8,247 nucleotides of DNA from a virus (Duplodnaviria; Heunggongvirae; Uroviricota; Caudoviricetes): the IMG/VR virus record IMGVR_UViG_2740892270_000011; one strand, written 5' to 3'. The first letter of the stretch is position 1. Each line of letters begins with the position of its first letter. The position numbers were made by a program, and so were the translations under genes. Under the pieces are notes generated by a model, which saw only the letters and a program-made list of their open reading frames with translations, was not told the origin of the DNA and did not search any database. Below, piece by piece: positions 1-8,247 of this stretch.

Positions 1-61
1 CATCAGATGGCTGCTTAAAAAAAGAACAAATGGTAGTGTCCGCTATTGCCAGTACACCTCA
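1..61. repeat. Left arm of a perfect 61-bp inverted repeat (partner 8150..8210); abuts the window edge so may extend further left
   Basis: Reverse complement of 1..61 equals 8150..8210 at 61/61 positions; identity breaks at 62 versus 8149. Confidence 0.9.
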
Positions 62-203
62 GGGTATAAGGGGTTATGGCCACCGGACTACCAAACGGCT
101 GCCAGCCCTCTTTCAGTTTATGTGTCAGCTTTTCCGCAAGATCTGACGGCGGCGCCGCCCTGACAACATCATAGTGTTTAAATGCCATGGTTCTTTCCAC
201 CAT
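15..203 (-). CDS. Small late-region phage protein, 57-62 aa, resembling the DUF1737-type proteins found just upstream of lysis genes; start is ATG at 203 or more likely ATG at 188
   Basis: Open frame with TAA at 15..17. Sequence MAFKHYDVVRAAPPSDLAEKLTHKLKEGWQPFGSPVAI fits the DUF1737 pattern as recalled (Y.VV...LE..L.EGW.P.GSP); not verified. Weak SD-like GGTGGAAAG precedes the ATG at 188. The last 14 codons and stop lie inside the inverted repeat. Confidence 0.5.
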   Translation of the reverse strand: MVERTMAFKHYDVVRAAPPSDLAEKLTHKLKEGWQPFGSPVAITPYTLRCTGNSGHYHLFFF

Positions 204-448
204 CTGAAAAATAATTCTTTAAAATACCTGACATGTAATACAGAAAAAACACAAAACCATACCTTAAATAAAAACCTGATTATCAAGCAGATATGCATGG
301 ATAAACTACAAGACGAGATATAAACCACCCTGCATTTAAATAAACAATAAACAACATCAGAAAAATAATTCTGCTCTATGGTTTACATTCAAAAATATCA
401 TTTATACTTTTCAGAACATCACCAGCAAGGCATAAACAAGGAAACTAA

Positions 449-784
449 ATGAAGTGGATTGTGATTGATACAGTTATCCAGCCATCATGCGGAATATCTT
501 TTTCAGTCATATGGAGTAAAATAAAATTAATAATCTGGTATCAATCGGATGCTTTCTTACCTCCTGAAAGTATATTTACACTGACTCACACAGGCATCAT
601 GCTCAATAACAAAGTGCTACCTGTAACCATTTACAACGTAGTACCATTCAATAAAACATTCTGGAATTCAATCAAAAATAGCCAGGAATGCCCTACAAAT
701 ACAGATAACGTATTGAATGAATGCTTTAATAACCGTTGCACTCTGCAAATATGTCCTTATGGACTAAAACAACAAAGTCCATAA
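449..784 (+). CDS. Hypothetical 111-aa protein in an AT-rich island, with a C-terminal Cys pattern C-x10-C-x4-C-x4-C; no family recognised
   Basis: SD AAGGAAA (438..444) lies 4-6 nt before ATG 449. A 111-codon open frame is unusual in DNA this AT-rich. Opposite strand to the late operon. Confidence 0.4.
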
Positions 785-787
785 GGA
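754..787. repeat. 12-bp perfect inverted repeat (tccttatggact / agtccataagga) with a 10-nt spacer, spanning the last codons and stop of ORF 449..784
   Basis: Direct reading: 754..765 is the reverse complement of 776..787. Confidence 0.7.
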
Positions 788-804
788 GTTTACTCACATC
801 TGAC

Positions 805-840
805 AAAATCAATATAAACAGCCCCTCCGGAGAGGGGCTG
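805..840 (-). terminator. Candidate intrinsic terminator for minus-strand transcripts (9-bp GC-rich stem, 4-nt loop, then a T-rich tract)
   Basis: Stem cagcccctc (819..827) pairs with gaggggctg (832..840). On the minus strand it is followed by TTTATATTGATTTT. Confidence 0.35.
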
Positions 841-1079
841 GAGAGTGGCGCTATGTGCCATTGCATGGTGCCGGGTGCCTCCCGGTGAATTCAGTACCAG
901 CACCTGAATCCGCGATTATCCCATATACCTACTCGCTGATTGCCCCTCCGCACAGGGGGATTCACCATGCCAGTTTCTTTTAACAAACTCCCCGCAAAAC
1001 AGACAACTGTCAACCGTCTGAATTGTGAAGTATTTAAAAATTTCTCCCGCTAACTGATACCCGGCTAACAGTCTGGCGT

Positions 1080-1329
1080 NNNNNNNNNNNNNNNNNNNNN
1101 NNNNNNNNNNNNNNNNNNNNNNNNNNNNNNNNNNNNNNNNNNNNNNNNNNNNNNNNNNNNNNNNNNNNNNNNNNNNNNNNNNNNNNNNNNNNNNNNNNNN
1201 NNNNNNNNNNNNNNNNNNNNNNNNNNNNNNNNNNNNNNNNNNNNNNNNNNNNNNNNNNNNNNNNNNNNNNNNNNNNNNNNNNNNNNNNNNNNNNNNNNNN
1301 NNNNNNNNNNNNNNNNNNNNNNNNNNNNN
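1080..1329. other. Run of 250 N (masked or unsequenced); hides the 3' part of the ileZ-like tRNA
   Basis: Literal n characters. Confidence 1.
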
Positions 1330-1382
1330 CCAGCGACCTGGCGATTATGAGTCGCTCGCTCTCACCACTGAGCTAAAGGGCC
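1330..1382 (-). tRNA. Partial tRNA (5' 53 nt visible, 3' part inside the N block), ileZ-like tRNA-Ile2/Met type with anticodon CAU
   Basis: Minus-strand sequence GGCCCTTTAGCTCAGTGGTGAGAGCGAGCGACTCATAATCGCCAGGTCGCTGG shows acceptor, D-arm, and anticodon loop CTCATAA (CAU). It closely resembles E. coli tRNA-Ile2 as recalled. Confidence 0.6.
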
Positions 1383-1422
1383 GGGAGCCGCATAATAACG
1401 ACGCGTAATTAATTCTTCAATA

Positions 1423-2481
1423 TCATCCGTTCTGGCTGACTAAATCCTGTACTTCCCGAACCGTCTGCTCAAAACGTTCAGTCTCCAGCTCAACGCCAAT
1501 TGCACGACGCCCGAGCGCCAGTGCCGCTTTCACTGTCGAACCCAACCCCATGAAAAAATCTGCAATCAGGTCACCCGGACGACTGCTAGCGCTGATTATC
1601 TGCTGCAGCATTTCTGCCGGTTTTTCGCACGGATGTTTCCCGGGATAGAACTGCACCGGTTTATGCGTCCACACATCGGTATACGGCACCTGCACCGTCA
1701 CGCCAAAATACCGCCGCAGATGTTTATATTCACTCAGCAGCTCCGCATACTGCCGGTTCAGTGAGGTATACGTATCCACCAGCTGGTGGTGGAGCTTTTC
1801 CAGTTCACCACGCCGATGCTTCTCTTCTGCCACCCGGGCAAACAGCGCCTGTAATTTCAGATAATCGCTTTCATTCGGCAACTGCCACTGACCGGCACTG
1901 AACCAGTGCGACACCATGTTTTTCTTTCCTGTGGCATCTGCAATCTGTTTTGCCGTTATCCCCAGGGCAGCTCGCGCATCACGAAAGTAAGAAATCAGCG
2001 GGGCCATCACATGCTGTTTCAGTGCACTGCCCTTCGCCGCATACCCGGCATCTTTCGGACGATACGGCCCCTGATAATGTTCCGCGAACAGAATGCGCTC
2101 TGTGGCGGGGAAATACGCCCGCAGGCTTTCCTTGTTGCATCCGTTCCAGCGTCCGGACGGCTTCGCCCAGATAATATGGTTCAGCACACTGAAGCGTTCA
2201 CGCATCATGATTTCGATATCAGATGCCAGGCGATGACCACAGAACAGGTAAAGACTTCCGGCAGGTTTCAGCACCCGCCAGAACTGCGCCAGACACTGGT
2301 CCAGCCACTTCAGGTAATCATCGTCGCCCTTCCACTGGTTATCCCAGCCCTCAGGCTTCACTTTAAAGTACGGCGGGTCCGTGACTATCAGGTCAACAGA
2401 ATTTTCGGGTAACGACCGGATAAATTCCAGGCAGTCGGCGTTGATTAACTCACAACTGGATATTTTTACAGTATTAAGCAT
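1423..2481 (-). CDS. DNA N6-adenine/N4-cytosine methyltransferase, beta-class order (DPPY motif before the AdoMet FxGxG motif), 352 aa; prophage cargo
   Basis: LIVTDPPYF near the N-terminus and DFFMGLGST near the C-terminus. A central segment (ITAKQIADATGKKNMVSHWF) looks like a helix-turn-helix insert. Full-length open frame. Confidence 0.9.
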   Translation of the reverse strand: MLNTVKISSCELINADCLEFIRSLPENSVDLIVTDPPYFKVKPEGWDNQWKGDDDYLKWLDQCLAQFWRVLKPAGSLYLFCGHRLASDIEIMMRERFSVLNHIIWAKPSGRWNGCNKESLRAYFPATERILFAEHYQGPYRPKDAGYAAKGSALKQHVMAPLISYFRDARAALGITAKQIADATGKKNMVSHWFSAGQWQLPNESDYLKLQALFARVAEEKHRRGELEKLHHQLVDTYTSLNRQYAELLSEYKHLRRYFGVTVQVPYTDVWTHKPVQFYPGKHPCEKPAEMLQQIISASSRPGDLIADFFMGLGSTVKAALALGRRAIGVELETERFEQTVREVQDLVSQNG

Positions 2482-2490
2482 GGATCATTA

Positions 2491-2600
2491 AGCCTGTCTC
2501 TGATAGGCTCATTCTGCTTTTGCGCAAAGCAGTGGGCCTGAGGTTTGCTTGTGAACCCAACGCATGAGCAGATGGCTGGTGGGTGCCCCTAACACCCACC
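2491..2600. promoter_or_regulatory. Cluster of three palindromes in the 5' leader of the methyltransferase gene; candidate operator or RNA structure
   Basis: agcct..aggct (2491..2509); near-perfect 19-nt palindrome ctgctttTGCGCAaagcag (2514..2532); 8-bp stem ggtgggtg / cacccacc (2578..2600). None is followed by a U tract. Confidence 0.35.
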
Positions 2601-2608
2601 AGCCGCCC

Positions 2609-2872
2609 NNNNNNNNNNNNNNNNNNNNNNNNNNNNNNNNNNNNNNNNNNNNNNNNNNNNNNNNNNNNNNNNNNNNNNNNNNNNNNNNNNNNNNNNNNNN
2701 NNNNNNNNNNNNNNNNNNNNNNNNNNNNNNNNNNNNNNNNNNNNNNNNNNNNNNNNNNNNNNNNNNNNNNNNNNNNNNNNNNNNNNNNNNNNNNNNNNNN
2801 NNNNNNNNNNNNNNNNNNNNNNNNNNNNNNNNNNNNNNNNNNNNNNNNNNNNNNNNNNNNNNNNNNNNNNNN
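2609..2872. other. Run of 264 N (masked or unsequenced); hides the 3' end of the unknown cargo gene
   Basis: Literal n characters. Confidence 1.
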
Positions 2873-3146
2873 TGTTGTACTCCTGAACAAGAGCAAATAA
2901 TTCTGAATTAGCAACCATGAACTCATCGCAAACCCTCTGTATAGCATCACTATTCAGAATAATAACGTCTCTTCCCGAAAGACGATCAGGAGTACAGAAC
3001 AAAACTGTCAAACGGCTGAAGGCCTTTGCTCGTGCTGCATTGACTATATCAATACGCTGCCTAAGGATGAAACACCCCGACGCCTCATCAATATTCACTC
3101 TACCCACACCATATGAATGATAAATATTTAATGCTGAAAAAACCAT
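2873..3146 (-). CDS. Hypothetical protein, N-terminal 91+ aa visible with the C-terminus inside the N block; AT-rich; no family recognised
   Basis: Frame open from ATG 3146 (the track extends to a TTG at 3173) down to the N block: MVFSALNIYHSYGVGRVNIDEASG... No convincing SD, so the start is uncertain. Confidence 0.3.
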
Positions 3147-3283
3147 TAGACCGTATAACAAACACTCAATCAATACTTAACAGAACTTTTATTTTTGACA
3201 AACATAAAATATTTTCAACAATATCCTGAGCCAGGTATATTTCAGTATAAGGCTCTGCCGGAAGGAATCTGGAAGAATGAATA

Positions 3284-3360
3284 TGGCGCGCTGTACTGGA
3301 TTCGAACCAGTGACCGATTGCTTAGAAGGCAATTGCTCTGTCCGGCTGAGCTAACAACGC
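3284..3360 (-). tRNA. tRNA-Arg with anticodon UCU (reads AGA), the argO/argN-like rare-codon tRNA typical of lambdoid late regions
   Basis: Minus-strand 77-nt cloverleaf: acceptor GCGTTGT / ACAGCGC, D-arm GCTC..GAGC, anticodon stem ATTGC / GCAAT with loop CTTCTAA, T-arm ACTGG-TTCGAAT-CCAGT, encoded CCA. Confidence 0.85.
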
Positions 3361-3399
3361 TGAATACCGATAATGGACCGCCATCGGGGACCCGCCCCC

Positions 3400-3659
3400 N
3401 NNNNNNNNNNNNNNNNNNNNNNNNNNNNNNNNNNNNNNNNNNNNNNNNNNNNNNNNNNNNNNNNNNNNNNNNNNNNNNNNNNNNNNNNNNNNNNNNNNNN
3501 NNNNNNNNNNNNNNNNNNNNNNNNNNNNNNNNNNNNNNNNNNNNNNNNNNNNNNNNNNNNNNNNNNNNNNNNNNNNNNNNNNNNNNNNNNNNNNNNNNNN
3601 NNNNNNNNNNNNNNNNNNNNNNNNNNNNNNNNNNNNNNNNNNNNNNNNNNNNNNNNNNN
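3400..3659. other. Run of 260 N (masked or unsequenced) between the tR'-like terminator and tRNA-Arg; could hide further tRNAs
   Basis: Literal n characters. Confidence 1.
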
Positions 3660-3730
3660 ATAACTCTTGTCGAAAAAGCCAGCAAGCTGAAAGACAGGTA
3701 TTCACCGCCACCAGCGCGTTTACTGTACTG

Positions 3731-3760
3731 ACGCGATTTCAGTCATAAAAAACCCGCTCG
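3731..3760 (-). terminator. Intrinsic terminator downstream of the Q-like gene (tR'-like position)
   Basis: 7-bp stem aacccgc (3741..3747) / gcgggtt (3754..3760), 6-nt loop; on the minus strand it is followed by TTTTTTAT. Confidence 0.6.
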
Positions 3761-3833
3761 GCGGCGGGTTGTAGAAACTCTTCTAACGTCAGGCATAAAA
3801 CGCCCATCGTTATAACGAATTTACCACAGATTC

Positions 3834-4164
3834 CGGAAAAATCAACCTTGTTACCTAGTTACCTTTTTTANNNNNNNNNNNNNNNNNNNNNNNNNNNNNN
3901 NNNNNNNNNNNNNNNNNNNNNNNNNNNNNNNNNNNNNNNNNNNNNNNNNNNNNNNNNNNNNNNNNNNNNNNNNNNNNNNNNNNNNNNNNNNNNNNNNNNN
4001 NNNNNNNNNNNNNNNNNNNNNNNNNNNNNNNNNNNNNNNNNNNNNNNNNNNNNNNNNNNNNNNNNNNNNNNNNNNNNNNNNNNNNNNNNNNNNNNNNNNN
4101 NNNNNNNNNNNNNNNNNNNNNNNNNNNNNNNNNNCGGAAAAATCAACCTAGTTACCTTTTTTAA
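3834..4164. repeat. Near-identical direct repeat immediately flanking the N block 3871..4134 (copy 1 at 3834..3870, copy 2 at 4135..4164)
   Basis: Both copies read cggaaaaatcaacc-tagttacc-tttttta. Copy 1 carries an extra ttgttacc 8-mer. Copy 2 is in-frame coding sequence of the Q-like gene. Confidence 0.8.
3871..4134. other. Run of 264 N (masked or unsequenced); hides the 3' end of the Q-like gene and any late promoter
   Basis: Literal n characters. Confidence 1.
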
Positions 4165-4965
4165 CTGCCGCTCAGCCCATGCTTCTTCAATATCAAACCG
4201 AGTCACCAGCGCATCATAGAATTTCTTAACTGTTTTTTCCCATGACGCGCGTGTTATCTGGTTTGTCACCTCGCATATAGCATTAAATGCCTCCGTTGAT
4301 GGTAGTCTTTCATAGCCACGACCACCACAACGCTGGCAGTCTCTGATAACAGGCATACCACGTTTTACCGACTCTTCACGATGAATGGCGACACCACGCC
4401 CACGGCAATCCTTACAGGCGGTGGAAACCTCACCCTTTCCGCCACACTCCGGACAGGCAACTTTTACCACCTCCCTGACTTTTTTCCATTCTTCCCAGTA
4501 AGACGGATACACACCTTTCGTACACTTTGCCCATACCGGCGGCTTACCATCCGGATACTGGATCTTGTTTGTAAAAACCTCGCTTTCAATAAATTTTTTT
4601 CCGTGACAGCAGGGGCACTGTTTTTTGCTCGCCGCGCTACGGGCATAATCTTCAAACGCATACGAAGCCATAATACGCATCACTGCCGGTTTTATTTCTG
4701 CCGGGAGTTTTCTTAACGCCGCCACGCGATCACACCGACTGAGTGCATATTCTGTCAGCAATTCTGTTGCCCGCTCTCTGTCATTCATACTAATGCCCAT
4801 TTTCCCAAGGAACGCAGAAACCCCCATCTCAGCCCGATTCTGTGTCATGCCCTGCGCGGCCATCACATCAGTGATACTCAGCGCATCTTTCGACGTTGAG
4901 GCCGATGCATCAGTCAGGCCGGGGGATTTTGGGGAGTAGTATTTCGGTAAATCTTCCAGTTTCAT
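4135..4965 (-). CDS. Q-like late antiterminator with a DnaJ-type zinc-finger module; 277 codons visible, 3' end inside the N block
   Basis: Four CxxCxGxG repeats (CPCCHGKK, CPECGGKG, CKDCRGRG, CQRCGGRG). N-terminus MKLEDLPKYYSPKSP resembles Q proteins of Qin-type prophages as recalled (unverified). Start ATG overlaps the rusA stop (ATGA). Sits in the canonical Q slot between rusA and the terminator/tRNAs. Confidence 0.65.
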
Positions 4966-5253
4966 TTTTTGACCTGCCCTTCAAGCATTATGGGATAAAT
5001 CTTCACCCCCAGACGTCCACCAGATACTGGCTGAGCACGAACGATATTGATTTCATCAAACTGCTCATCGTCCATTAGCAACCCCGCATGCGTCAGCGCA
5101 TCCAGCGGCGCTTTCAGAATATTGTCCAGGTCACGGCGGCGCTTATCCGGTGGTTCTGCAATAATTTTTATTGCCAACCTTCCGGACAGGCTTAATTTCA
5201 GCCGCTGCTGGCGAACAATAAGCGCCACTGCCCGGCGATAACGCTCCCCGGCT
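4962..5253 (-). CDS. rusA: Holliday-junction resolvase RusA; C-terminal 97 aa visible, 5' end inside the N block
   Basis: PDKRRRDLDNILKAPLDALTHAGLLMDDEQ...GGRL matches the RusA catalytic core of E. coli RusA ([30 protein letters not shown], from memory). Stop TGA at 4962..4964. Confidence 0.85.
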
Positions 5254-5503
5254 NNNNNNNNNNNNNNNNNNNNNNNNNNNNNNNNNNNNNNNNNNNNNNN
5301 NNNNNNNNNNNNNNNNNNNNNNNNNNNNNNNNNNNNNNNNNNNNNNNNNNNNNNNNNNNNNNNNNNNNNNNNNNNNNNNNNNNNNNNNNNNNNNNNNNNN
5401 NNNNNNNNNNNNNNNNNNNNNNNNNNNNNNNNNNNNNNNNNNNNNNNNNNNNNNNNNNNNNNNNNNNNNNNNNNNNNNNNNNNNNNNNNNNNNNNNNNNN
5501 NNN
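5254..5503. other. Run of 250 N (masked or unsequenced); hides the rusA start and the end of the DUF968-like gene
   Basis: Literal n characters. Confidence 1.
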
Positions 5504-6407
5504 CAGCCTTTGTTCCCATCCCTCCCAGTCCATGACCAATGATGTGATGCGGATCATCTGCCTGATTGCCACACGTCATGCATTTCTGCGTTTTTACCCA
5601 GCGCGTGTATACAGGCATCTCTTCCCGTTGTGATTTCTGGCGCTGGAGATACTGAGCCGGTGACTCCGGATCAACGGCAATGCTGACCACCGTCTTTTCC
5701 TGTGGTGGGTTCTGTTGCTGGTGGACGTGAGGCAGTAACGCAATATTTTTTGTGCGCTGCTTCAGTATGCTGGTGGCTGTCTGCTCTCCCGGTATGATGT
5801 CGCTTTCACTGTACACAGAGCGAATTTTTTCCGCACGCAACCCCAGCGAACGACGTAATACCGCTTCCGGTAGCGCGTCCGCCACCTGATTGCGGACCGC
5901 CCACCAGGATAATTCAGCCAGAGATAATTCACGCTCCTGCGTACCGCTTATTGCGTGACCGATGACGTCAATCATCCATGCTGACAGGTTTTGATGAGCA
6001 AGTTGCTCGAGTGATTCGGATGTCTGGTCACGCAGCTGGTTGTCGCAGTGCCAGCACAACACCATTGCGCCGGTACCATAACGGTGAATGACGGTTTCGC
6101 TGTGATGATAATCGCCGTGTGGCCACTGGCAGGATTTAATATGGCGCAACAGCCAGTCAGACAATGCACCAGCACCACCAGCAGCACGAATCACCCGTGC
6201 GTTACTGAAAAACGGCAGCAATGTTTTGTCTTCCACCAGCGGCTGGCGAGCGGCAGGAACGACCCCGGACGGCAGATTACGCATGCTTTTTGGTTCCGGC
6301 TCCACCAGTATTCTGCCGTTATGGAATGCTGACATTGATTCACGGCCTGGCTTAACGATAACCAGACCGAGTTCCGGTACCAGAACAGGTCGAAGTAATA
6401 CCCGCAC
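5504..6407 (-). CDS. Lambdoid nin-region protein, DUF968/YdfU-like (family name from memory); 301 codons visible, 3' end inside the N block
   Basis: Long open frame starting at GTG 6407 behind GGAGG. Cys/His cluster CMTCGNQADDPHHIIGHGLGG just before the N block. Position immediately upstream of rusA. Confidence 0.65.
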
Positions 6408-6482
6408 ATTACCTCCAGATCCGTTGCTGGAATGTGCGGGACGGACGCGTTGGCCGTTCGGAGTAAGGGAGCCTGACGGAGA

Positions 6483-6764
6483 TTATCCAGTGACGGTAGT
6501 CGAGGCTAAGGGCTTTTTTAACCTCGCATCCGCGCCTGCGGTAACACTGAATGAGCCATTCGGCCTGTTCTTCAGTGCATGGGGGATGCTGGTACCAATC
6601 AGATTTAAATGCGTGAGAGCGCCGCCCGTGCCTGCTGGCAAAGACGGCTGAATTATCAGAATTGTGTAGTCTGGAAGGCAGTGGCTGACAATAGCGCCAT
6701 TCTCAACGCGCACAGTATAGAGGCCATCTTCACTAAAAATTTCACGTAATTCTTCGATTTTCAT
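6483..6764 (-). CDS. Hypothetical small protein (93 aa) between hok and the DUF968-like gene; C-terminal half is low-complexity and may be frameshifted or over-extended
   Basis: ATG 6764 preceded by GGAAGGA with an 8-nt spacer; N-terminus MKIEELREIFSEDGLYTVRVENG looks protein-like. Confidence 0.4.
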   Translation of the reverse strand: MKIEELREIFSEDGLYTVRVENGAIVSHCLPDYTILIIQPSLPAGTGGALTHLNLIGTSIPHALKNRPNGSFSVTAGADARLKKPLASTTVTG

Positions 6765-6846
6765 CAACAGAATCCTTCCAGATAAATAGCACTCCCCTGT
6801 TCGGGGTCCATCCCTCTTCTCCCTGCGCGCTACTTAAGTATTTTTG

Positions 6847-6876
6847 ATTCTATTCCGGCACCATCTAAAACTTCAA
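6847..6876 (-). promoter_or_regulatory. Candidate sigma70 promoter (TTGAAG, 18-nt spacer, TAGAAT) reading leftward into ORF93, DUF968-like, rusA and Q-like
   Basis: On the minus strand the -35 is at 6871..6876 and the -10 at 6847..6852, immediately downstream of the hok terminator. Confidence 0.35.
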
Positions 6877-6884
6877 ACGCGTTG

Positions 6885-6916
6885 AAAATAAAAACAAAAA
6901 CCCGCCGAAGCGGGTT
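6885..6916 (-). terminator. Intrinsic terminator downstream of hok
   Basis: Stem aacccgc (6899..6905) / gcgggtt (6910..6916) with loop cgaa; on the minus strand it is followed by TTTTTGTTTTTATTTT. Confidence 0.6.
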
Positions 6917-6984
6917 AAGTGTGGGTGCATTGAGGATGCCTGCCCCATCAGAGGTGGCGAGGGATTTCTCCCCCGCCTGGTCTC

Positions 6985-7140
6985 TTACTCCTCAGGTTCG
7001 TAAGCTGTGAAGACAGCGACCTCCGTCTGGCCGGTTCGAATTCGTACCTCGCAGAGGTCTTTCCTCGTTACCAGTGCCGTCACTATGACGGTTAAACAGA
7101 TGACGATCAGGGCGATTAACATCGCCTTTTGCTGCTTCAT
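6985..7140 (-). CDS. hok: Hok-family type I toxin (51 aa, single transmembrane helix); an in-frame upstream ATG at 7197 would give a 70-aa mok-like extension
   Basis: MKQQKAMLIALIVICLTVIVTALVTRKDLCEVRIRTGQTEVAVFTAYEPEE carries the Hok signature (LTRK.LCE.R, EVA.F.AYE). SD AAGGAG lies 9 nt before ATG 7140. Leader resembles hok mRNA leaders as recalled. Confidence 0.85.
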   Translation of the reverse strand: MKQQKAMLIALIVICLTVIVTALVTRKDLCEVRIRTGQTEVAVFTAYEPEE

Positions 7141-7188
7141 AGCCTGCTTCTCCTTGCCTTTCGGCACGTAAGAGGCTAACCTAGATTT

Positions 7189-7260
7189 GCCGTTCATAGA
7201 TTGAGCCTCAGATTAATGTTAAGCGTCTTGCCGGACGCGTAATGTTAACTGGGGCTTTTC
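7189..7260 (+). ncRNA. Candidate Sok-like antisense RNA opposite the hok leader and mok-like start; boundaries approximate
   Basis: Plus-strand promoter-like TTGCCT (7154..7159), 17-nt spacer, TAACCT (7177..7182) lies inside the hok 5' region in the position expected for sok. No clean terminator found. Confidence 0.25.
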
Positions 7261-7316
7261 TCTATCTGCCTTTTGGTGTTCATGCCTGAGACAGATAGCC
7301 TCAAGCACCCGCTGCA

Positions 7317-7344
7317 ATTCTACTTAACTCTCCTTTTCCCGCAA
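7317..7344 (-). promoter_or_regulatory. Candidate hok promoter (TTGCGG, 16-nt spacer, TAGAAT) with predicted transcript 5' end near 7310
   Basis: The -10 is at 7317..7322 and the -35 at 7339..7344 on the minus strand. The predicted mRNA begins GGGUGCUUGAGGCU..., resembling the 5' end of plasmid R1 hok mRNA as recalled. Confidence 0.45.
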
Positions 7345-7431
7345 ACCGTTTTTATCCCCAGCGGCAAATCGAATACACCACCAGCGCCACCGCCATCGCA
7401 ATTCCTACCGTTGTTAATGCTTCAGGCCAGG

Positions 7432-7776
7432 TCATCGTAAAATATCCTCCACGCTTATCAGTCCGTTCCGCTCCAGATAACTCATCGCCTTATCCGGTAA
7501 TTTGCAGTCTGGCTTCGCTTTCCTCAGTTGCCAGGTTAACTGCTTTACCAGCATGGTTAACTCATCGACCAGACGCTGATATCCCACTGGTTTGTATTCA
7601 TGCAATTTACCGGCTGGCTCTGCTGCCAGCGATACCAGTGCGATTTCCAGAACAGCAATATCCATCTTATATGTGCGGATGATGTCATGGTCGATTGTGC
7701 CCGGTATGCACAGTCTCTGTGCTTCAATAGTCTCCTCTGCGTGAGCTATTAACTGCTCTCTGGTAAAAGTCGTCAT
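7432..7776 (-). CDS. Hypothetical small protein B (114 aa), paralogous at its N-terminus to upstream gene A; unknown function
   Basis: ATG 7776 preceded by AGAAGGGG with a 7-nt spacer; start overlaps the stop of A (ATGA). Sequence [12 protein letters not shown]...[10 protein letters not shown]... Confidence 0.55.
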
Positions 7777-7940
7777 GCCGTAGCCCCTTCTTGATATTTT
7801 TCAAACCAGAACACAACCGGCTCTGCTTCCAGCGATGCCAGCGCAATCCGTGCCAGTTCCATTTGTTCACCACGGGTAAGCCCGTTTTCAAGCGGGTTTT
7901 TAATGAACAATTCAATACGTTCTTTGGTAATAGTGGTCAT
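7773..7940 (-). CDS. Hypothetical small protein A (55 aa), translationally coupled to B; absent from the supplied ORF track because it is short
   Basis: ATG 7940 preceded by AAGGAG with a 6-nt spacer. Hand translation [55 protein letters not shown] with TGA at 7773..7775. Confidence 0.5.
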
Positions 7941-7950
7941 GTGTTACTCC

Positions 7951-8181
7951 TTAACCCGCAGTGCTTTCAACTGATGAGGGGAACAAAATCTTTTCATCAA
8001 ACCCTGCATTCATATCATGAACAGCAACACACCAATCCATCGACGAACGATTATCAAGAGCCTCCATGATTTCATCCATGCGGCGTAGGTCATACAGGTA
8101 AATGCTTTTATCGCCAATGGTGTAAAAGCCAATTTTTTTCGGTGATGGATGAGGTGTACTGGCAATAGCGGACACTACCAT
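7951..8181 (-). CDS. Hypothetical ORF76; its first 10 codons lie in the right arm of the inverted repeat, so it may be a truncated or chimeric gene
   Basis: Open frame whose TAA stop (7951..7953) sits inside the SD region of gene A, an operon-like arrangement. No clear SD before ATG 8181; coding quality uncertain. Confidence 0.35.
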   Translation of the reverse strand: MVVSAIASTPHPSPKKIGFYTIGDKSIYLYDLRRMDEIMEALDNRSSMDWCVAVHDMNAGFDEKILFPSSVESTAG

Positions 8182-8210
8182 TTGTTCTTTTTTTAAGCAG
8201 CCATCTGATG
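8150..8210. repeat. Right arm of the perfect 61-bp inverted repeat (partner 1..61); carries a detached copy of the 3' end of the DUF1737-like gene
   Basis: Plus strand here encodes ..RCTGNSGHYHLFFF* as at the left arm, but the frame is closed by TGA at 8143..8145 just upstream. Confidence 0.9.
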
Positions 8211-8247
8211 ATATTTTTCCCTGAAGGCTGCCGGGGAGATATTCCCC

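Follow-up and report, generated by a model that had tools for sequence, protein, structure and literature searches.

IS600 termini and probable scaffolding of two prophage remnants in a Shigella sonnei-type sequence

A lambdoid regulatory region between inverted arms

The window, that is, the whole stretch of 8,247 nucleotides analysed here, has as its interior the regulatory region of a lambdoid prophage, interrupted by five runs of N. The genes inside, as given by Pfam, include a DUF1737 remnant, IraM, DUF3927, a methyltransferase, an antiterminator, RusA, DUF968, Hok and several small ORFs, and the genes of the window are 95-100% identical to those of E. coli and S. sonnei prophages. Judged by identities of 99.7-100%, the window comes from a Shigella sonnei-type genome. 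The interior was divided into pieces typed by identity and alleles to two paralogous S. sonnei prophage remnants, which we will refer to as A and B; L numbers denote the sequences used for comparison.

1-61, plus strand: IS600 copy 1, IRR terminus by 100% identity to annotated IS600; element end ...ACACCTCA at 61
1-18, plus strand: last 5 codons and stop of the transposase orfB (HQMAA*), by translation
15-203, minus strand: chimeric ORF62, DUF1737 remnant codons 1-48 followed by 14 IS600-encoded codons and a stop (RCTGNSGHYHLFFF*), by comparison with E. coli L001
62-1079: piece a, prophage-A type, 99.7% identical to L003-L010; DUF1737 remnant, iraM, STnc100 sRNA and the start of DUF3927
449-784, plus strand: iraM, in piece a
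810-999, minus strand: STnc100 sRNA (Rfam match)
1080-1329, 2609-2872, 3400-3659, 3871-4134 and 5254-5503: the five N runs (N1 to N5), all inside 1080-5503
1330-2608: piece Y, prophage-B type, 100% identical to L011-L018; 3' part of tRNA-Ile and the methyltransferase
1423-2481, minus strand: N6/N4 DNA methyltransferase (Pfam PF01555)
2873-3399: piece X, prophage-A type, 100% identical to L003-L009
3284-3360, minus strand: tRNA-Arg(TCT), in piece X
3660-3870: piece Z, B allele of the spacer that lies downstream of the antiterminator, including an 8-nt insert, ACCTTGTT
4135-5253, minus strand: Q-like antiterminator and 3' part of rusA, 100% identical to L107 and L148
5504-8149, minus strand: DUF968, small ORFs, hok/sok, ORF114, ORF55 and truncated ORF76, prophage-B type (Pfam, Rfam); 99.96% identical to L011 and 100% to L107
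6985-7197, minus strand: hok, within the 5504-8149 block
7135-7310, minus strand: sok of the same hok/sok pair (Rfam match)
7951-8181, minus strand: chimeric ORF76, an IS600-encoded start (MVVSAIASTPH) joined to the 3' part of an 87-aa prophage gene
8150-8247, minus strand: IS600 copy 2, IRR terminus by 98/98 identity; 5'-TGAGGTGTACTGG starts at 8150
8194-8196, minus strand: orfB stop codon TAA, with C-terminal orfB codons filling the bases up to 8247

The lambdoid Q/nin region is ordered hok, DUF968, rusA, Q-like antiterminator, (methyltransferase, tRNAs) and late genes. The genes of this region are present in the window, but the X and Y blocks are swapped with respect to every relative, and the five N runs intervene. 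In L001, L003, L107 and L176, X is found between a and Y or the antiterminator, a position unlike that in the window. The N runs make up 15.6% of the 'block'; they went unmentioned in the sequence-only reading of this DNA. The antiterminator starts at 4965, and its C-terminal tail is hidden in N4.

At its two ends the window carries a perfect inverted repeat, 1-61 against 8150-8210, with 61 nt at 100% complementarity and 8,088 nt between the arms. A repeat search together with direct reading of both window ends confirmed this repeat as it had been described, with identity ending at 62/8149, and the next best inverted pair in the window has 34 nt at 71%. The expectation of a perfect 61-mer inverted repeat arising by chance in 8.2 kb is effectively zero.

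Identity of the repeat arms

Both arms, over 61/61 and 98/98 nt, are identical to features annotated as "IS3-like element IS600 family transposase". Nothing but the window edge truncates the left arm, and the right arm continues to 8247, its 98 nt all identical to annotated IS600 copies; the suggestion that the repeat is truncated at the edge and longer than 61 bp is thus borne out, full copies being present in finished genomes. IS600, which the 61 nt match, occurs in 2,887 of 5,426 E. coli genomes, at up to 43 places per genome. The arm tips (...ACACCTCA and TGAGGTGT...) coincide with the points where homology to IS-free relatives stops: E. coli relatives devoid of the element match exactly 59-8149, the homology ending at the IS tip. 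On this nucleotide evidence, both arms are the right (IRR, transposase-stop) terminus of IS600, in opposite orientations.

IS600, an element of 1,264 bp that was originally reported from Shigella sonnei, belongs to the IS3 group of the IS3 family and has multiplied massively in Shigella. The reference copy in L002 has 1,264 nt, TG...CA ends and a GCG target duplication, and its orfA/orfB frameshift is annotated by RefSeq as "programmed frameshift". A comparison of IRL and IRR gives termini of 5'-TGAGGT...ACCTCA-3', imperfect terminal inverted repeats that start with TG and end with CA. A full-length 1,264-nt IS600 is found at the exact site of the left junction in finished S. sonnei chromosomes (L003-L006, L179-L188), and a full copy at the right junction in L011-L018; these junction copies are 99.7-99.9% identical to that of L002 over 1,264 nt. 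The gene calls for IS600 at the junctions in L003-L018 are a 100-aa HTH_Tnp_1 protein plus a 272-aa rve protein, or a 385-aa fusion. Arms and junction copies thereby agree with IS600 in sequence, termini and orfA/orfB, and the element itself shows no differences, the window holding only the last orfB codons and no other part of orfA/orfB.

The two ORFs that run into the arms had been read as a DUF1737-like gene closing with RCTGNSGHYHLFFF* (15-203, minus strand) and as a gene opening with MVVSAIASTP... (7951-8181, minus strand). Both are literally present, and Pfam PF08410 is recorded for a protein identical to ORF62, but the codons in question are encoded by IS600 and are not native. We assign to the element both the 14 "last codons" and the opening "ATG plus 10 codons", because intact E. 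coli homologues differ there: in the uninterrupted relative the DUF1737 remnant runs on as ...PYTL-MQAIAAEGDVVVSGATEPE*, a different 3' end, and the ORF76 homologue begins MATLTKKEQAWLNELQDVLDRC-PSPKK..., the native first 22 codons of the 87-aa gene (L001 12358-12621) being missing from ORF76. Comparison with these homologues identifies the IS tails of ORF62 and ORF76 as belonging to two prophage genes truncated by IS600.

It follows from the shared IRR terminus that the right arm is not a detached 3' fragment of the DUF1737-like gene, as had been proposed. The proposal of a native DUF1737-like 3' end and a detached copy, left by an inversion between prophage late regions, draws on ORFs that do read as described and on the existence in prophage B of another gene with a DUF1737 domain, encoding an esterase of 617 aa. 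However, the DUF1737 remnant aligns with the 617-aa gene at 92% over 59-189 only, the arm not being covered; the 61 nt match IS600, and intact DUF1737 relatives end differently. These results refute the proposal, to which we give practically no chance of being correct.

Order of the interior and the N runs

In finished S. sonnei chromosomes the two junctions belong to different loci. The left one is that of remnant A (cmoAB side ... IS600 / DUF1737'-iraM-DUF3927-tRNA-Arg-antiterminator A-rusA-IS21), and the right one is that of remnant B (IS600 / ORF76'-hok-DUF968-rusA-antiterminator B-methyltransferase-tRNAs ...). In CP022457.1 they are located at 3,362,490-3,362,609 and 4,096,893-4,097,049, both on the plus strand and 734 kb apart; the two IS copies are inverted, and A and B themselves are direct repeats. 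All 33 long contigs with iraM show the A context only, ORF62 contexts behaving likewise, and every one of the 25 contigs with ORF76 shows the B context only, with the same near flanks (DUF977 side, DUF1737-SASA side). The two junctions are found together on short draft contigs only.

The window alternates A/B/A/B, each switch falling inside an N run. Mixed alleles are also found within pieces: the A-type piece a carries prophage-B alleles at 999, 1008 and 1017, and in the antiterminator piece the alleles are of A type over 4135-4219 and of B type from 4563 on, the crossover falling within 4220-4562, a stretch of 343 nt identical in A and B. Furthermore, 4135-4163 repeats 3834-3870 as the other allele, so that both alleles of a 29-37-nt stretch flank N4. 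The order a, Y, X, Z corresponds to an A path (a, X) and a B path (Y, Z) interleaved by distance from the shared contig, a match of order that would arise by chance in 1 of 6 cases. In other drafts the passage from A to B takes place within different identical stretches, one of 343 nt (antiterminator) and one of 69 nt (tRNA-Arg).

The N runs have the character of gaps in a scaffold, and not of masks over sequence in its natural place. N5 spans 250 nt, 6 nt more than the natural spacing of 244 nt, which is shared by 76 of 76 IMG/VR contigs as well as 8 S. sonnei loci, and is ruled out as a mask of natural sequence by this invariance. For N1-N4 the same idea lacks support, the adjacencies a-Y, Y-X, X-Z and Z-antiterminator having zero occurrences in IMG/VR (76 matches for the control pattern). 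Masking of tRNA genes was likewise discarded, since the tRNA-Arg gene at 3284-3360 carries no mask. Piece ends cannot all be explained as simple de Bruijn unitig ends with a k-1 overlap either, the overlaps being inconsistent (about 60 nt at two ends, 18 and 98 nt at others). No comparable N runs were present in the other loci retrieved for comparison.

The order of the 8.1-kb interior in the window is therefore a probable assembly artefact, and misassembly, which the sequence-only reading had listed as a possibility, is probably involved. Most likely, six short contigs of a short-read draft would have been scaffolded into the interior, the paralogous A and B paths being collapsed and interleaved and the assembly short-circuiting from A to B across shared sequence. 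Repeat-induced chimeric contigs and scaffolds from short reads present the same features as the window: ends in a multicopy IS, gaps at every paralogue switch, bubble alleles placed in series, mixed alleles within a piece and assembly-dependent crossovers. The window differs from them in its oddly uniform gaps, whose lengths of 250-264 fall in a narrow range, atypical of scaffolder gap estimates.

A real compact hybrid module would be another explanation, namely a sub-lineage in which recombination or gene conversion put the left part of A into B, anchored on IS600 and on the 343-nt identical antiterminator stretch, leaving a 6-8-kb piece of prophage with a genuine inverted IS600 copy on each side; on this view the window would represent that locus plus additional B-type pieces or masks. 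Contig L107 (6,236 nt, no N) does carry both junctions, 6.0 kb apart. It shares with L148 the hybrid antiterminator, 100% identical to window 4135-5253, and is also identical over 5504-8247, the private base 6943C included. The hybrid A/B antiterminator protein is found in 366 S. sonnei contigs, which could mark a real sub-lineage, and the longest of them, at 84 kb, must read through at least one IS600. Perfect identity over 343 nt at the crossover is a natural recombination substrate too, and in most finished genomes locus B already lies between inverted IS600 copies separated by 6,365 nt. On the other hand, no contig beyond 84 kb has the hybrid, whereas the pure forms are on finished chromosomes of up to 5.04 Mb; the 33 iraM and 25 ORF76 contigs all lie in separate contexts; another draft crosses at a different place; and the window retains Y and Z, B-type pieces that ought to be absent from a hybrid, in an order without parallel elsewhere. 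A reciprocal crossover of A and B is disfavoured as the hybrid's origin, since direct repeats 734 kb apart (CP022457.1) would lead to the deletion of 734 kb. We therefore hold a real hybrid module to be unlikely. That some S. sonnei sub-lineage may carry a compact hybrid of the two remnants, through gene conversion anchored on IS600 and on the 343 nt, is in our view a rather slim prospect; if true, the hybrid would be a recent and traceable IS-anchored conversion from prophage to prophage, the segment being invertible by homologous recombination.

The IS600 copies as recombination joints

Simple IS600 insertions leave a 3-bp target duplication. The arm copies in finished genomes are flanked by CCC/IS/CTA and TTT/IS/TCC, with no such duplication, whereas the polymorphic IS600#2 of L011 (TCC/IS/TCC) and the L002 copy (GCG) both have one. 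The missing half of the GGA duplication is located 2.2 kb away, inverted. The absent duplication is read as later recombination, and not as evidence against IS600 identity. In contig L147, the right junction is joined to 2,229 nt of the outer flank of the A copy (99.9%); these flanks are the combination that would be expected after an inversion between the copies. Inspection of L011 found no IS remnant at the end of the inverted block beside ompW. What the two IS600 copies form is not an 8-kb switch but the homologous-recombination joints of a large segment, because both are without target duplication and the flanks in L147 are exchanged.

The expansion of IS600 in Shigella and IS-flanked inversions have been described (PMC7373316; PMC12795559). 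In the large IS-mediated inversions and deletions of Shigella, it is inverted IS copies that provide a portable homology (Hawkey et al. 2020, PMC7373316; reference set PMC12795559), and the 734-kb IS600 bracket of CP022457.1 and the exchanged flank of L147 are of the same kind. They differ in that the portions of PMC7373316 and PMC12795559 available to us do not name the present IS600 pair, and in that the inversion suggested here comes from a single prophage-region contig.

The inversion geometry that had been attributed to the repeat is valid insofar as inverted homology is a substrate for inversion; an 8.1-kb flip-flop is unsupported, with no invertase, one orientation and junctions 734 kb apart. 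A composite transposon or programmed invertible segment, in which 8.1 kb would move or flip between the inverted IS600 copies, would fit the inverted IS pair around a segment, which resembles Tn5- and Tn10-type composites, and the IS600 copies at these sites do recombine. Nonetheless, the Pfam lists contain no site-specific recombinase or invertase inside, and the segment was not found at any other IS600-flanked locus. The near outer flanks are constant (25 ORF76 contigs for the right copy, 33 iraM contigs for the left), and a contig-level comparison of the 25 ORF76 contigs gave no second orientation. In addition, both copies are without a target duplication and no duplication could be matched up from one end of the unit to the other; the outer flanks show no relationship, and finished CP022457.1 has 734 kb between the arms. 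Switches such as Hin/Gin/Pin or fimS have their own dedicated recombinase and short specific repeats, whereas the repeats of the window are IS termini; with Tn5 and Tn10 the window shares two inverted IS around a DNA segment, but it is without signs of unit mobility, flanking duplication or selective cargo, and its arms are far apart in the finished genome. Such a unit is accordingly very improbable. Taken as a whole, two IS600 IRR tips, a scaffold tangle of A and B, and IS copies serving as recombination joints seem to us the likely explanation of the window.

The finding is an ordinary one, combining already known biology with a probable assembly artefact. Where a genome is rich in IS, as in Shigella, perfect inverted repeats at contig edges are usually tips of a multicopy IS where the assembly broke, and ORFs running into them are chimeras and not native gene ends; assemblers can also stitch paralogous prophage remnants together. 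Apparent blocks bracketed by inverted repeats therefore need to be checked against finished genomes before a switch or mobile unit is proposed. The underlying biology is standard Shigella genome decay, in which IS600 truncates prophage genes and supplies the homology for large inversions.

Identity of the inverted arms

The 61-nt inverted repeat proposed in the sequence-only reading is real, and chance is excluded: the reverse complement of nucleotides 1-61 is identical to 8150-8210, both in a repeat search and on direct reading of the two window ends, and the second-ranked inverted pair in the window comprises 34 nt at 71%. When the complete window was compared by megablast with 5,426 complete E. 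coli genomes, the top matches spanned exactly 59..8149, i.e., the DNA between the arms, with the arms outside. The right arm and the bases after it (8150-8247) are present in 2,887 of these genomes, at up to 43 places per genome, and are 100% identical to features annotated as "IS3-like element IS600 family transposase". The reference IS600 copy of E. coli E2865 (L002; 1,264 nt) lies inside ninF with a GCG duplication at both sides, starts at 5' with TGAGGTGTACTGG..., ends at 3' with ...GGCTACCTCA, and carries a frameshifted transposase. At both junctions, homology to an IS-free E. coli prophage (L001) stops in the alignment exactly at the IS tip. Because of this stop and of the identity to annotated IS600, both arms are the IRR (transposase-stop) end of the element, with the two copies pointing inward; sequence, termini and transposase identify it as IS600. 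The left arm measures only 61 nt because the window ends there, bearing out the earlier suspicion that the true repeat might be longer. In S. sonnei 53G (HE616528.1; L181, 7637-9411) the left-junction IS600 is itself split by IS1.

Chimeric ORFs at the junctions
15-203, minus strand: ORF62, reading MVERTMAFKHYD...PYTL-RCTGNSGHYHLFFF*
7951-8181, minus strand: ORF76, reading MVVSAIASTPH-PSPKK...

By translation comparison, the L001 counterpart of ORF62 goes on after PYTL as ...PYTL-MQAIAAEGDVVVSGATEPE*, and the L001 homologue of ORF76 reads MATLTKKEQAWLNELQDVLDRC-PSPKK.... The last 14 codons had been taken as native to the DUF1737-like gene, an ATG plus 10 codons as the opening of ORF76, and the right arm as a detached 3' gene fragment; both sets of codons are IS600 sequence joined to two truncated prophage genes, and neither arm is a gene fragment.

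Genomic location of the two junctions

Each chimeric ORF was used as a unique tag of its own junction. On S. sonnei chromosomes, Ss046 (CP000038.1) among them, ORF62 occurs in a single context, prophage remnant A, and the look-up of iraM placed 33/33 long contigs there. ORF76 belongs to a different context, remnant B.

Gene order of the two remnants
Remnant A (ORF62 context): cmoAB-yecN-pin-dam-...-203 aa, IS600, DUF1737'-iraM-DUF3927-antiterminator (284 aa)-rusA (124 aa)-85 aa-IS21
Remnant B (ORF76 context): ompW-...-DUF977, IS600#1, ORF76'-55-114-hok-DUF968-rusA (126 aa)-antiterminator (273 aa)-methyltransferase-tRNAs-(IS600#2)-DUF1737/SASA esterase-holin

The finished chromosome CP022457.1 was returned by both look-ups, with the left junction at 3,362,490-3,362,609 and the right one at 4,096,893-4,097,049. 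Both lie on the plus strand, and therefore the two IS copies are inverted and bracket ~734 kb, a segment whose start resembles the left end of the window and whose finish resembles the right end.

A composite transposon or programmed invertible switch of 8 kb is unsupported: no recombinase gene was found inside the segment among the genes of contexts A and B, no second site or second orientation was seen in either context look-up, and comparison of the IS flanks gave no target duplication around the whole unit. The distance between the arms in CP022457.1 also speaks against a mobile or switching unit, and the earlier flip-flop interpretation is likewise unsupported.

Composition of the window interior

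Features of the window
1-1079: A type, 99.7% (piece a, 62-1079)
1330-2608: B type, 100% (piece Y)
2873-3399: A type, 100% (piece X)
3660-8247: B type, 99.5-100%, except A alleles at 4135-4219 (includes piece Z, 3660-3870)
1080-1329, 2609-2872, 3400-3659, 3871-4134, 5254-5503: five N runs (N1-N5), 250-264 nt each
810-999, minus strand: STnc100 sRNA, full-length Rfam match (133.6 bits), between iraM and DUF3927
821-837 and 942-958: GC-rich hairpins within the STnc100 match
6985-7310, minus strand: hok/sok type I toxin-antitoxin locus (Hok ORF and Rfam sok)
6985-7197, minus strand: Hok ORF
7135-7310, minus strand: sok, Rfam match (112 bits)

A 29-nt direct repeat (7616-7644 and 7819-7847, 86%) codes for a motif common to the adjoining 114-aa and 55-aa ORFs, which hence resemble paralogues.

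BLAST against both loci shows the window switching back and forth between A and B, always within N runs. Block X, with tRNA-Arg, is misplaced, as it lies between DUF3927 and tRNA-Ile in L001 and in S. sonnei A. N5 is 250 nt long, 6 nt more than the 244 nt that separate the two flanking sequences in 76/76 IMG/VR contigs and 8/8 S. sonnei B loci; gapped pattern searches for the four other adjacencies gave zero matches in IMG/VR. The 29-37 nt left of N4 carry a B allele with an 8-nt insert, and the same stretch right of N4 is the A allele. Within the otherwise A-type piece a, B alleles occur 9 nt apart at 999, 1008 and 1017, explained either by a popped bubble in the assembly or by gene conversion over a small patch. 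For all these reasons, the interior is unfaithful to any one natural locus. N runs of such size were absent from the other loci of an initial set (174 in all).

Sorting the pieces of the A path (a, X) together with those of the B path (Y, Z) by distance from the shared downstream contig gives a, Y, X, Z, exactly the window order, a match expected 1 in 6 times by chance. Most probably, six short contigs were scaffolded into the window, with collapse and interleaving of the two paralogous prophage remnants; a genuine hybrid sub-lineage is the less likely alternative.

Both junctions occur together on some contigs. L107, which is 6,236 nt long and free of N, and L148 have the order a-X-antiterminator-...-ORF76' and are 100% identical to window 4135-5253, L107 also over 5504-8247; an 8,160-nt scaffold (L171 + L176) has the canonical a-X-Y-Z, with one N exactly at the position of N4. 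The A-to-B crossover falls within 4220-4562 in L107, L148 and the window; the 8,160-nt scaffold instead crosses over inside tRNA-Arg, within 69 identical nt. The 343 nt of 4220-4562, part of the antiterminator gene, are 100% identical between A and B, versus 94.7% in the surrounding 1.1 kb, which suggests past gene conversion between the remnants. The hybrid antiterminator protein occurs in 366 contigs (the longest of 84 kb), and the pure A and pure B proteins in at least 1,000 contigs each, including 5.04-Mb chromosomes. At 3814 and 6943 the window has private single bases, differing from every finished S. sonnei locus; L107 also has 6943C, so the window's source and L107 are closely related or belong to one lineage. 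Several IMG/VR contigs (L130, L174, L171, L178) are concatenations with single N separators in which one prophage segment recurs with differing alleles, and thus the region is commonly mis-scaffolded in drafts. Overall, the repeat is real, its explanation ordinary, and the scaffold probably artefactual.

Target duplications and probable recombination between IS600 copies

IS600#2 of locus B is a simple insertion (TCC-IS-TCC) downstream of the methyltransferase (16398-17661 of the B locus L011); found in 6/8 B-locus contexts shown and missing from L012 and L017, it is a recent polymorphic insertion. Locus B with this copy holds a 6,365-nt segment between inverted IS600 copies. The arm-forming copies are without matching duplication (CCC-IS-CTA and TTT-IS-TCC), and the GGA half-site that the right copy lacks is found 2.2 kb past it, in an inverted block. 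This block (L011, 6543-8768) has the opposite orientation to the rest of prophage B. It contains DUF4014, DUF977 and the 5' part of ORF76, and begins with the GGA triplet pairing with window 8147-8149; an IS remnant was looked for at its far end, beside ompW, and none remains. In contig L147, the 2,229 nt next to the right-junction IS600 match, at 99.9% identity, the DNA flanking the left-junction IS600 on its outer side in L003, the combination that would be expected if homologous recombination had inverted the DNA between inverted IS600 copies. The absent target duplications mark later recombination, not another IS family. The flank exchange of L147 fits published accounts, which count IS600 among five IS that have expanded across all Shigella and describe inversions flanked by IS in S. 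sonnei (PMC7373316, PMC12795559).
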